From contig CM000153.2 in assembly GCA_000004695.1 (NCBI GenBank), positions 3,904,001-3,968,000 of the forward strand: a stretch of 64,000 bases of DNA. The letters run 5' to 3'. Shown here piece by piece: positions 25,775 through 35,783 of the stretch. The notes beneath the pieces are model-generated. The model searched no databases and had not been told where the DNA came from. It was given only the letters and a program-made list of their open reading frames with translations. The translations under genes and the position numbers were made by a program. This stretch comes from Dictyostelium discoideum (taxonomy: Eukaryota). Each line of letters begins with the position of its first letter. Within the stretch, counting starts at the first letter, position 1.

Positions 25775-27220
25775 TTAAATACAAATTGGATCACCTTGAT
25801 TTGGAATAATAATTCTAACACCATTATTATTTGCTTCTTTTAATTGTTGATAGATTACTCTTTGAGTTGTCCAACCATTTGGATCTTCAGCAACTTGTGG
25901 TTTAATGTGTTCGATGATTAATTTAACATGTTTGAGATTAGTCATTGGTGGAGAGGTTTGAATGGATTGAACCAAGAGTTGATCCATTAATTTCATGACA
26001 TCTCTTGGACGGAGATGACCAAACATAGCAGAGTCTGGAGTATTATTTGGGAAAGAAGTTTCGATGTAGATAGCTTTTAATTTATCGATTTTAATTTGTT
26101 TCCAGACGGCATAGATTTTACCTTCCCAATCACAAGCGACAGAGGATGGAACACCAGTATCAGAGAAGAAAGCGATTTGTTCACCAGAGATACTATCAGT
26201 GAAGAGGAAAGAAGTTGATATTAAATTATCGTGACACAATTCAAATGGTTTAACTTTGACAGAGAAAGGGAATTCATTGGCGACCAAAGACATAGTGGTG
26301 GCATTGTATGGGACCAACTCTGTGAATGGATATTCAATGCCACTTGCTAAACTAAAGTATTGATAACGACCAAATGATGGAAGATTTGGCCAAACTTGAT
26401 TATTGAAAAGATTAGTAGAGATTGAATTGATGGTTGATGGTAAACCCATGATGGTTTTCTTTTGGAGGATACTTGAAGAGGTGAAATCAGTTGGTTTGAA
26501 CCCTAATTTACGAATGAGACCCATGATACCATTGTTGATTGGTGGTTGAACATCGATCCAATTCTTTGCTAAATAATCCTCTGGTGAAACTAAAATTAAA
26601 CCACCTACATGATCTAAATGACTGTGACCAATGAAATAACTCATAACGTGATTCTTGAGGAACCATGAGGTTCTTTGCTCTGGTAAAACTGCCCATGATG
26701 GATAGGTAATATTGAAGAGTGTATTGAAATATTTGAAGGTGGTTAATCTTCTAACACCTTGCCATACTGTACCTGCATCCAATGCAATGAAAAGATTACT
26801 ACCTTTCTTTGTCAAGAGGAATGATGAGAGATTACCTTCATCCAATCCACCAGTTGTACCCAATGGTATGGTTATGTATGATGCATCCCTACAATCTTTA
26901 GTTGCAAATGATCCACTATAATAATTCCAATTCTCTGGTGTATAATAATCATTTAAATTATAAAAATTACTACCATCGTTACTGTTTTTAACTGATCTTC
27001 TTTCTGATCTCTCTGCTGAAATTCCTATATCTTCATCGTCATCATCACAATCTTCTTGTTGATGGGAATTTACAATATTTAAAATTATAAAAATTAAAAG
27101 TAATAAACTAATTCTATTTTTGGGAAAAAAAAAAAAAATAAAAAATAAAAATTTCCAAAAAAAAAATTCCAAAAAAAAAAAAAAAAAATTAGTATAAACA
27201 ACAAATCAATTTCTATTTTT

Positions 27221-27258
<38 letters not shown>

Positions 27259-27286
27259 CCACTTACAATTTTTTATTTAATGCCAT
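25775..27286 (-). CDS. pdsA: Secreted class-II cyclic-nucleotide phosphodiesterase of 452 aa in 2 exons, 27286..27267 and 27113..25775. This is probably the extracellular cAMP phosphodiesterase PdsA.
   Basis: Class-II PDE signature HSHLDHVGGLILVSPED. Signal peptide MALNKK|LISLLLLIFIILNIVNS. Exon 1 ATG is in a caaaaaaaATGGCA context with a GTAAGT donor, a 153-nt intron and an aaaaatag acceptor. The total length of 452 aa and the large upstream noncoding region fit what is reported for pdsA. The symbol is inferred, not searched. Confidence 0.7.
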
Positions 27287-27580
27287 TTTTTTTGTATATT
27301 TTTTGTAGTTATTCGAACTATATTAATTCTTTCTTCTTTTATAATAAAAAAAAAAGATAAAGATATTGGAAAAAAAAAAAATTTTATTTTTTTTTTTTTT
27401 TTTATATATATTTATAAAAAAAAAAATAAGTTAGTAATTTTAATTTTAGTTTTTTTTTTTTTTTTTTTTTTTTTTGATTAAATAAATAAATAAATAAATA
27501 AAATAAATAAAATTTAAAATTAAAAAAAATAAGTGAGTGTGTGGCGTTTGTGGGTTATTGTTATAAATATTTATATGTAT

Positions 27581-27628
<48 letters not shown>

Positions 27629-27923
27629 AAAAAAAAAAAAAAAAAACAAAACCCAATGATATTTTGAATCTGTTATTATTGTTTTAATTTTGAATGTATT
27701 ATTGTTTGAAAAATTAATTTTTTAAAAAAATAAATAAATAAAAAATTTTAAAAATTATATATCCCTTAAAATTTTTTTTTTTTTTTTTTTTTTTAATTTT
27801 TTTTTTTTTAATATCAATTAAATTAAAAACAAATAAAAAATAATAATAAAATTTATCGAGTGTTTTTTGTTTGTGTGTAAACATGAAAAGGTGTATCAAC
27901 ACATAAAAGATCAAAATAAATTA

Positions 27924-27964
<41 letters not shown>

Positions 27965-28489
27965 TAGTAGTAAATAAAAAAAAAAAAAAAATTTTTTTAA
28001 AAAAAAAGGAAATAATAAAACCCCTAATTGTTACACACAATAGATATCGACGAGGTTAGTGTAAAATATACACATTTGTTTCATAACAGTAGTGTTATAA
28101 TTGGTTTCGATCTTTGAAATCGTAAATTATTTTTATATATAATTTAAAATAAATATACTACTATTATACATTATAGAGCTATCCATTATGTCAATATATA
28201 GGGTTTAAATTATTTTTATTATTTTTATTATTCTTATTATTATTATTACTTTTTTTTTTTTTCCTTTTTTTTTTTTTTTTTTTTATTTTTTTTATAACTA
28301 CTTGTGACTTTCATTATTTTGTGTATGATTAATTATTATCACTCTACCCTTAAAAATATTTTATTTTTGGGTATTTTTATATATAGTTTTTGTTTTTGTT
28401 TTTTTTTTTTTTTTTTTAATCATAAAATTAAAAATATAACAATCAATGTTTTATTGTATAAAAAAAAAAACAATAAAAATATCAAGTTT

Positions 28490-28890
28490 AGTAGTGGGGA
28501 GAAAGAGGGAGTGTGGGCGTATGTGTGGTGTTATAAAAATATAAACATTTAATTAATTTTTTATTTATTTATTTTTTTTATTTATTTTTTATTATTGGTA
28601 GTGGGTGGTGTGATTATTGATGTTTTTATTAAGTAGTGTTATATATGATTTAATTAAATTTTTTTATTAAATAAAAATGTTATATTGAAAAACAAATAAA
28701 CATCATAAAATGTTGATTTATATGGAACTTGGGATGATATAAAAAAATAAAATACATCATCTCTATCTACCATCTAAACACAAAATTAATTACTCACTAT
28801 CGTTTGAATTGAATTGGGCAGTGAGTGGTGTGAAAATCAATGTTGTTATTGAATATTACATAAAATTGTGTGTGGGGTGTTTGGGTGATT
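28490..28890. promoter_or_regulatory. Cluster of G/GT-rich G-box-like elements (GTGGGGAG, GGGAGTGTGGGCG, GGTAGTGGGTGGTGTG, GGGCAGTGAGTGGTGTG, GTGTGTGGGGTGTTTGGGTG) inside the 8.5-kb region upstream of the phosphodiesterase gene
   Basis: These sequences stand out against 85-90% A+T surroundings. G-boxes and CA/GT elements are the classical cis elements of developmentally regulated Dictyostelium promoters bound by G-box binding factor. Further clusters lie at 34195-34260, and TTTGTGTGAGTG motifs at about 30410, 30885 and 32112. Confidence 0.35.
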
Positions 28891-33685: not shown

Positions 33686-34160
33686 AAAAAAAAAAAAAAA
33701 TTATAGAAAGAAAATTAAATTAAAATAAAATAATTATATAAAAGATAGATAAATTTAATTTTAAATTATTAAAGGGGTTGATAATGTAATAAAATTAAAT
33801 TTTAATTGGGTTGTGTATTTTGGTTTTAAAATTATTATTATTATTATTATTATTATTTTATCATGGCTATAATTTTACTTTATTACTATCCAACTTTTTA
33901 TTTATATCATTATTTTTGATATCATGATACCCATACATATTATATATATATATAAATATATTATATAATTTTATTAAAAAAAAATGGAAAAAAAAAAAAA
34001 AAGAAAAATAAAATAAGACAAAACCATCTAAATTTTTTTTTTTATTTTTTATTTTTTTTTTAAATTTTTTTATTTATTTATTTATTTTGGATATTTGAAT
34101 ATCAAAAGTAGAACAACTTTTTACCTTTTCAATTATAAAACAAATAAAAAAAAAAAATAT

Positions 34161-34191
<31 letters not shown>

Positions 34192-34464
34192 AATATTGGG
34201 TGGTGTTTTTGTTAAAGAGAGTGGGAAAGGGATGAAAGGAGGTGTGTGATTATAATAAATAAATAAAAAAAATAAAAAAAAACATTGTGGGTTATAATTT
34301 TTTTATACATAAAACTTTAATTTCCAAAATTATATAGGTTAGTACGTACACACAAATGCACTTGTGTATTTATTTTTGAAATTAAAGATTGATGATTTCA
34401 CAGTACCAATACATATTCACACACTCACACCACTACCACAAGCACTCTTTAAATAATAACAACA

Positions 34465-34525
<61 letters not shown>

Positions 34526-35340
34526 AAAAAAAAAACAATTCTCCAAATTGATATTAGATATATTATTAAATTAATAATTTATTCTATGGTCTCAAAAAAA
34601 AAAAAAATATAAAAAAAAAAAAATAAAAAAATAAAAATAAAAAAAAAAAGTTTAAAAAAAAAAAAAAAAAAAAAAATGTAGTTTAAATAAGAAATAGCGC
34701 AAGTAAATTAAAAGATTTTAAATGTGTGTGTGTTTTACCATAAAATAATTTAGAAATTTCGTAAAAAGTACATTTTATAAATAGTTACATTTTGGAAAGA
34801 TAAGAATATATTAAAATATTTTATATTTTAAAGTATTAAAAAAATAAATAAAATTAATCTGTAGCTAAAAATAGGAAGAGTTTTTAAATAACAAGATCTA
34901 TCGGGAAATGAAAACGAATTTACAAATAAATTTTTGAACTTTAATTTTAACACTTTTACTTTTTTTTTTATTCTTTTATTTTTTTATTCTTTATTTTATT
35001 TTATTTTATTAAATTATTTCTTACAAAACATACTTTTGCTTATTTTTTTTTTTTATTTTTTTTTCCCCTTTATTATTCTTACAATCTTTTTTATTCACTT
35101 TATTATTTTAAAATACAGTTTAAAATTAATTAATATTAATTATTTATTGTATTTAAATATTATTTTTTTAATTTTTCCTAAATAATATAAAAGTAAAAAA
35201 ACAAAATAAAAAAAAAAAAATGAAATAAGACAAGAATATCAAAAAAAAAAAACTGTACACATGATTTAATTTAAGGAGTATTATATACAATTAACTGTTT
35301 TATTTAATGATGGTATTATTATAATAAAGTTTTAAACTTT

Positions 35341-35373
<33 letters not shown>

Positions 35374-35529
35374 CCCATAAAAATAAAAAAAAACAAATAA
35401 AAAAACATTAAAAAAAAAAAACACAAACCGACTTTCAACTCGATTGATAGATTCAATTGATTATTAAATTTACTAAAATTAATTTCTACTGACTATTGGT
35501 ATTGATTATTATTTTATTATATTGATATT

Positions 35530-35560
<31 letters not shown>

Positions 35561-35783
35561 TTATTATTTTTATTATTATTATTTGACATTTTATTATAAA
35601 ACACTTTTTATCTTTATGTTTTTTTTTTATTATTTATTTTTTTTTTGGTGTTTAAAAAAAATTTTTTTTTTTTTTTTTTTAGTTGGGTGTTTTTTTTTTT
35701 TTTTTTTTTTTTCTTTAATCATTTTTTTTTTTTTTTTTTTTTAATATATAATTAATTAATTAAATTAATTATTTTTTTTTTTT

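Follow-up and report, generated by a model that had tools for sequence, protein, structure and literature searches.

The locus examined here raises the question of what occupies the long gene-free DNA upstream of pdsA, the gene of a secreted phosphodiesterase that shapes the cyclic AMP (cAMP) waves driving Dictyostelium aggregation. The window analyzed is a stretch of 64,000 nucleotides (nt) of Dictyostelium discoideum AX4 chromosome 4 (assembly GCA_000004695.1, contig CM000153.2, positions 3,904,001 to 3,968,000; positions below are those of the window), in which 8,497 bases separate the ATG of pdsA (27286) from the stop codon (35784) of a gene for an RRM protein, both genes lying on the same strand. 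Our analysis makes it highly probable that this DNA is the cis-regulatory and 5'-leader region of pdsA, with separate stage-specific promoters. One pdsA coding sequence would be transcribed from separate growth, aggregation (distal) and post-aggregation (proximal) promoters; the upstream promoters would make non-coding first exons, spliced to an acceptor just before the ATG across an intron of exceptional length, and the distal half of the interval (31.4-35.8 kilobases, kb) would most likely also serve pdsA regulation, as further enhancers or promoters. The locus and its multi-promoter control region are already known, and their recognition from the sequence is nothing new; the one forward-looking point is the half of the conserved 8.3-kb interval that has no described function.

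The phosphodiesterase gene occupies 25775-27286 of the minus strand and consists of two coding exons whose spliced product has 452 amino acids (aa). The program-listed open reading frame (ORF), 25775-27172 of the minus strand, begins within the intron and covers the second coding exon. Pfam PDEase_II (PF02112) matched over its full profile (E = 1.5e-145; residues 87-447 against positions 5-340 of 340), and the translation shows both the HSHLDH sequence (the HxHxDH metal-binding motif) and a hydrophobic N-terminus (LISLLLLIFIILNIVNS). An exact-sequence look-up revealed that the product is identical, residue for residue, to EAL64439.1 of D. discoideum AX4, which carries the database name 'cAMP/cGMP-dependent 3',5'-cAMP/cGMP phosphodiesterase A'. 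The coordinates published for DDB_G0285995 (chr4:3929775-3931286, minus strand; Rosengarten et al. 2016, PMC5295588) correspond to 25775-27286 of the window, with an offset of 3,904,000. The gene is pdsA (DDB_G0285995), encoding a secreted class-II cAMP phosphodiesterase, as the initial annotation had proposed, and its locus is already well described. That annotation had also considered that the product might be another class-II phosphodiesterase, for example Pde7; this identity was rejected, since the product is exactly PdsA, whereas Pde7 (Q54HY0, DDB_G0289145) has 425 aa, falls in a separate cluster, is only 62% identical and is encoded at another locus.

About 8.5 kb upstream of the gene had likewise been described as devoid of any credible ORF, and our results bear this out. 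Positions 27287-35783 contain only seven ORFs of 60-99 aa, all of them F/I/K/L/N low-complexity and one crossing an assembly gap, and none of the five that were scanned against Pfam scored above the curated cut-off. The corresponding interval of a gapless D. discoideum assembly has three ORFs of at least 70 aa, again all low-complexity, the longest being 83 aa. The interval is the longest stretch of the window lacking an ORF of at least 120 aa (8.6 kb, versus 4.6 kb for the next), in a window with an A+T content of 75-88% whose ORFs are poly-N/Q-rich. A transfer RNA (tRNA) search of the window found no tRNA gene inside the interval, and Rfam gave no match there at the gathering threshold and, at E<=1, only one chance match inside the gap artefact. 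A search for dispersed repeats found nothing shared between the interval and the rest of the window except A/T runs. Within the D. discoideum species complex, eight further assemblies (three of D. discoideum, two of 'D. cf. discoideum', and those of D. citrinum, D. dimigraforme and D. firmibasis) have no gene model between the RRM gene and pdsA. The interval is also asymmetric in base composition: plus-strand GC skew over 27287-35000 is +0.17 overall, +0.25 in the proximal 4.1 kb and 0.08 distally, and is near zero in other long non-coding stretches of the window. On the pdsA sense strand C exceeds G over most of the interval, a bias due to numerous CA-rich boxes lying in one orientation.

The interval is conserved both in length and in sequence. 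It measures 8.0-8.5 kb in all nine assemblies and is collinear throughout, and the gene order TMEM33, RRM, pdsA, LRR protein, ABC-F protein is kept in all eight other assemblies. Conservation was determined from a MAFFT alignment of the nine sequences, which represent five taxa, named or provisional, of the D. discoideum complex. Aligned identity of the interval to D. dimigraforme, D. citrinum and D. firmibasis was 0.83-0.88 (0.63-0.70 with gaps counted), against 0.69-0.81 (0.41-0.60) for controls from the same locus, namely the pdsA intron and three other intergenic stretches; the comparison is tempered by the small size of the control set (about 2.1 kb in four pieces) and by the A/T-rich low-complexity alignment, which inflates identity in interval and controls alike. 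Identity in nine of nine sequences was found at 53% of the interval positions, and conserved blocks with at least 29 of 30 columns identical range from 31 to 102 nt, the largest being 28131-28030. Distal sub-regions are approximately as conserved as proximal ones, 31701-32600 being a few points lower. Since RNA folding of the most conserved blocks was no better than that of shuffled sequences (z -0.3 to -1.2), the blocks are read as DNA elements and a structured-RNA reading was dropped.

The published literature states that pdsA has separate growth-, aggregation- and late-specific promoters, as the initial annotation had supposed, that its distal promoter is aggregative and its proximal promoter post-aggregative, and that multiple promoters are needed for both level and cell specificity. 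A search of published text for the sizes of pdsA mRNAs found nothing relevant, and no genome-wide start-site map for Dictyostelium emerged from a literature search. The pdsA (PDE1) locus was reportedly described by Podgorski and colleagues in 1989 and by Faure and colleagues in 1990. Three mRNAs of 1.9, 2.4 and 2.2 kb are said to share one common coding sequence; the late promoter is reportedly proximal, with growth transcripts starting 1.9 kb and aggregation transcripts 3 kb from the ATG, and the later of the two reports is said to confine the three promoters to the 4.1 kb or so before the ATG. Start sites in Dictyostelium usually follow an oligo(dT) tract. From the sequence and these reported distances we infer three starts, near 27970 (late), 29150 (growth) and 30330 (aggregation); splicing would use the donor at 29652 and the acceptor at 27336.

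The predicted acceptor (ATAAAAG/AAGAAAGAATTAATATAGTTCGAAT) is located 49 nt before the ATG, behind a T-rich tract, and is conserved in all nine sequences. The donor of the candidate aggregation-specific exon (G/GTATGT, GT at 29652-29651) is likewise identical in nine of nine. A conserved donor and a common acceptor are thus present ahead of the ATG and would be used as splice sites, in which case joining 29652 to 27336 would remove an intron of 2.3 kb. The position of the candidate aggregation start agrees with the reported distance of 3 kb, and the presumed promoter upstream of it, 30400-31400, has a mean identity to five relatives of 0.76-0.95 per 100 nt. The position of the candidate growth start agrees with the reported 1.9 kb; its possible GTGAGT donor at 28797 is intact in only seven of the nine aligned sequences.

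The largest of the conserved blocks lies at the late promoter. Across the nine sequences the block 28131-28017 (102-115 nt) shows only one mismatch column and one insertion confined to a single assembly (L009), and its 102-nt part, 28131-28030, is more conserved than the pdsA coding sequence. This part adjoins the predicted late start on its upstream side and holds two short inverted repeats together with conserved GATC and GATA sites; folding of the block on both strands was not significant (z -1.2 and -0.3). The contiguous 0.68-kb leader predicted for the late transcript would fit the reported 2.2-kb mRNA.

Several short motifs were considered and set aside. An excess of GATA/TATC and CACCC over first-order Markov expectation was not relied on, since any complex k-mer seems enriched where long homopolymer runs are present. 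Full conservation of GATC sites (five of seven, versus a background of 31%) was marginal and was not relied on either. TACTAAC branch-point-like motifs occur in about the number expected by chance and were not used, and no RNA family or fold supports the DUSE-like ACCCACAA motifs near 34290 and 27555 as marking small non-coding RNA genes.

Transcription, GtaC binding and open chromatin at the pdsA upstream region or promoter are known from published data sets. pdsA is among the putative direct targets of GtaC, with binding scores of 5.2, 17.6 and 15.2, in a study that counted all DNA as far as the upstream gene as promoter (Santhanam et al. 2015). In a table combining ATAC (assay for transposase-accessible chromatin) and RNA sequencing, pdsA appears six times; the three of these six rows that were examined are all from the streaming stage, each with a different ATAC peak value, and the RNA value for pdsA goes up from roughly 13 during growth to roughly 280 at the streaming stage (Wang et al. 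2021).

The initial annotation had pointed to six less A+T-rich islands as possible promoters and 5' non-coding exons, a suggestion that holds in part. All six are real, with a G+C fraction of 0.20-0.27 per 100 nt against 0.03-0.15 around them; they are mild, far below the G+C fraction of coding sequence. The strongest islands of the interval, 28801-28900 (0.35) and 28001-28100 (0.27), were not among them, nor were 32501-32600, 31401-31500 and 35401-35500 (0.22-0.23 each). Islands 29270-29520, 30400-30780 and 31190-31330 are found immediately 5' of the starts predicted for growth and aggregation, a position that fits promoter DNA rather than exons. The other three (32090-32160, 33320-33480 and 34190-34450) would fall beyond the mapped promoter region, which reportedly reaches about 4.1 kb from the ATG, and the published map would leave them unexplained.

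These three islands belong to the distal half of the interval, which may hold extra pdsA first exons or enhancers, since it is as conserved as the proximal half and contains two invariant donor-like motifs. The first, GGTAAGT at 31620-31614, is identical in nine of nine sequences, is flanked by A-runs that vary in length and lies behind the conserved block with TATAAAAA and a T-run at 31960-31880. The second, AAAAG/GTAAAAAG (GT at 34124-34123), follows a long T-run and a complex segment of 330 nt and belongs to a 53-nt block in which no fewer than 29 of every 30 columns are identical in the nine sequences; in this most distal island, blocks 34414-34377 and 34140-34088 are identical in all nine sequences, and RNA folding of the island block was not significant (z -0.8). 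The layout of a conserved block, a T-run, a less conserved segment and an invariant donor is the same as in the presumed aggregation exon. To our knowledge, no available description of the locus covers the candidate exon 31611-31960 or the distal 4.4 kb.

One or two further promoters, whose non-coding first exons would end at the donors 31619 and 34124, are on this sequence evidence a tentative proposal for the distal 4.4 kb. That such exons, spliced to the same acceptor before the ATG, exist beyond the reach of the maps of 1989-90 is rather doubtful. The six pdsA entries in the ATAC table, against three described promoters, are in agreement with them (Wang et al. 2021). On the other hand, the published survey of long non-coding RNAs (lncRNAs) shows transcription only to 30267, though exons joined to pdsA would not be listed there (PMC5295588). 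The GT-containing heptamers may also be conserved as parts of protein-binding sites, and the G/C strand asymmetry is weaker distally (skew 0.08 versus 0.25). Moreover, three promoters reportedly already explain the three mRNA sizes. Should the distal exons be real, the number of pdsA promoters would rise to four or five, and the resulting introns of 4.3 and 6.8 kb would greatly exceed what is usual for this genome.

The same lncRNA survey, made with stranded, ribosomal RNA-depleted libraries, lists only one intergenic transcript between the RRM gene and pdsA, the model CUFF_3695_1, whose Spearman correlation with pdsA is +0.67 (PMC5295588). The model is coextensive with the pdsA leader region, and because its ends coincide with the pdsA gene start (14 nt off) and with the predicted aggregation start, we take it to mark the transcribed leader. 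Either a genuine antisense RNA or strand leakage from abundant pdsA mRNA and pre-mRNA could underlie it, and the catalogue entry may be a mis-stranded or leaked pdsA leader signal. An independent plus-strand lncRNA gene, antisense to the pdsA leader and itself regulating pdsA, is unlikely. It would account for the listing as an intergenic single-exon lncRNA in stranded libraries and for the correlation with pdsA, and a 33-nt T-run just before 27300 on the plus strand provides the usual Dictyostelium start context; the two ends, however, are those that leader or pre-mRNA signal or strand leakage would give, and the Rfam and folding tests found no conserved structure or RNA family match. In addition, the median abundance of lncRNAs is 1 RPKM (reads per kilobase per million mapped reads), versus 41 for mRNAs (PMC5295588).

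Some observations weigh against assigning the whole interval to pdsA promoters and leaders. CUFF_3695_1 is annotated on the strand opposite to pdsA and gives only qualified support for transcription of the leader. The start sites are predictions, set against reported distances of 1.9, 3 and 4.1 kb and reported mRNA sizes. A transcript search for the pdsA leader found the exact PdsA protein only in genome assemblies, and the single Logan contig (L007) is unspliced, keeps the intron end and yields no leader. The upstream region of D. purpureum pdsA showed no detectable nucleotide similarity to the interval, k-mer comparison and stringent local alignment being not above shuffles; matches from a permissive BLAST against that region were only A/T-rich and spurious and were discarded. 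Finally, the distal 4.4 kb could act on something else or on nothing.

The window has three 100-N assembly gaps (13034-13133, 32630-32729 and 40336-40435), the second of which lies within the pdsA upstream interval. The G/C-rich flanks of this gap (e.g. GGGGGAATTTGGGGGGCC) are missing from all eight other assemblies and look like low-quality read ends beside a long T-run and A-run. In a gapless assembly that is 99% identical (L003) the place of the gap is taken by about 57 nt, made up of a T-run, GGGTTCATT and an A-run, and the true interval is therefore about 8.29 kb; a gene hidden in the gap was rejected on the same grounds. That the gene-free stretch is an artefact, whether a coding gene hidden by the gap or split into short exons or a decayed mobile element, is hardly credible: the 100-N run does lie in mid-interval and short exons are possible in Dictyostelium genes, but so short a gap sequence, the absence of any called gene in the eight other assemblies, ORFs that in the gapless copy reach only 83 aa of low complexity with no Pfam match above cut-offs, a G+C fraction of at most 0.35 and mostly below 0.2, and the lack of any repeat common to the rest of the window all speak against it. 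The features of the locus and the upstream intervals used for comparison are listed in Table 1.

Table 1. Coordinates of the pdsA locus and its upstream interval, and upstream intervals of related genes
Feature	Position	Strand	Remarks
pdsA coding exon 2	25775..27113	-	TAA stop at 25775-25777 included; from ORF list, sequence, spliced-product identity and PDEase_II match
pdsA coding-region intron, GTAAGT...ATAG	27114..27266	-	Excision gives MALNKKL/ISLLLL..., the exact database protein
pdsA coding exon 1	27267..27286	-	ATG GCA TTA AAT AAA AAA TT; ATG at 27286-27284; matches published gene end chr4:3931286
Predicted common 5' leader (27287-27335) and 3' splice acceptor (AG at 27337-27336)	27287..27337	-	Inferred
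lncRNA model CUFF_3695_1 / DDB_G3970053	27300..30267 (chr4:3931300-3934267)	+	Single exon, 2,967 nt; Rosengarten et al. 2016, PMC5295588, Files S4, S6
Late (proximal) promoter core	27960..28131	-	T-run 27992-27976; predicted start ~27970 (27975-27960), 0.68 kb from ATG; no splice donor
Candidate growth-phase first exon	28792..29186	-	T-run 29186-29162; predicted start ~29150 (29160-29140), 1.87 kb from ATG; donor GTGAGT 28797-28792; low confidence
Candidate aggregation-specific first exon	29647..30390	-	T-rich tract 30390-30336; predicted start ~30330 (30335-30320), ~3.04 kb from ATG
Presumed aggregation promoter	30400..31400	-	Conserved blocks, CA/GT-rich boxes; includes islands 30400-30780 and 31190-31330
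Distal candidate first exon	31611..31960	-	Conserved block with TATAAAAA and T-run 31960-31880; GGTAAGT 31620-31614 (GT at 31619-31618)
Assembly gap and artefactual flanks	32625..32807	.	N at 32630-32729 (100 N); G/C-rich flank 32730-32807
Most distal island (34190-34450 in the initial annotation)	34088..34460	-	Long T-run, then G-rich, then C-rich segment
Upstream neighbour DDB_G0286007, RRM protein	35784..36347	-	3' end bounds the interval; published chr4:3939784-3940347 (-)
D. purpureum pdsA			Distance to upstream gene at least 4.46 kb (contig ends)
Tieghemostelium lacteum pdsA (group 3)			Upstream interval 2.8 kb; RRM neighbour retained (L011 6592-10001)
Cavenderia fasciculata pdsA (group 1)			Upstream interval 4.6 kb
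D. discoideum pde7			Upstream interval 1.8 kb

Elsewhere in the window, the catalogue of Rosengarten et al. (2016, PMC5295588) places an antisense RNA, CUFF_3696_1, over the 5' end of the RRM gene (36204-36469, plus strand), two others over DDB_G0285999 (CUFF_3693_1, 14930-15893, minus strand) and DDB_G0286015 (CUFF_3701_1, 46860-47608, plus strand), and a 1.4-kb lncRNA at chr4:3916620-3917998, that is 12620-13998 of the minus strand, which spans the first N gap. The tRNA search detected four genes, at 15821-15893 (-), 38404-38476 (+), 41723-41804 (-) and 43721-43793 (-), comprising Asp-GTC twice, Ser-TGA and Ala-AGC. In D. citrinum (L005 20069-21496) a reverse-transcriptase and endonuclease gene of the non-LTR (long terminal repeat) retrotransposon type lies downstream of the ABC-F gene; the other assemblies lack it at that position.

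All dictyostelids sampled have a long upstream interval at pdsA, and that of the D. discoideum complex is the longest. In C. fasciculata (L013) the downstream LRR and ABC-F neighbours are kept, and the upstream neighbour is a DNA-primase gene. The paralogue pde7 encodes the same Pfam domain and a protein 62% identical to PdsA, but it differs in having 425 aa, another locus and only 1.8 kb of upstream DNA.

Compared with the published pdsA (PDE1) locus, the gene analyzed here is the same, with an identical protein and matching chromosomal coordinates, and the architecture is as described, with a proximal late promoter, a distal aggregation promoter and non-coding first exons. It differs in that the genomic interval is about twice the roughly 4.1 kb reportedly mapped. 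The stacked promoters of pdsA are a textbook case of one protein used at three life stages. The same logic of a proximal post-aggregative and a distal aggregative promoter is found in carA and acaA of D. discoideum, which are different genes encoding different proteins. The literature groups carA, acaA and pdsA as a mark of cAMP-based aggregation in group 4, and the stacked promoters support the idea that group-4 dictyostelids gained cAMP chemotaxis through distal promoters on existing genes. Only for carA has the distal promoter been documented to be absent outside group 4; the upstream intervals of pdsA outside group 4, in comparison, are shorter yet still long (2.8 kb in group 3 and 4.6 kb in group 1).

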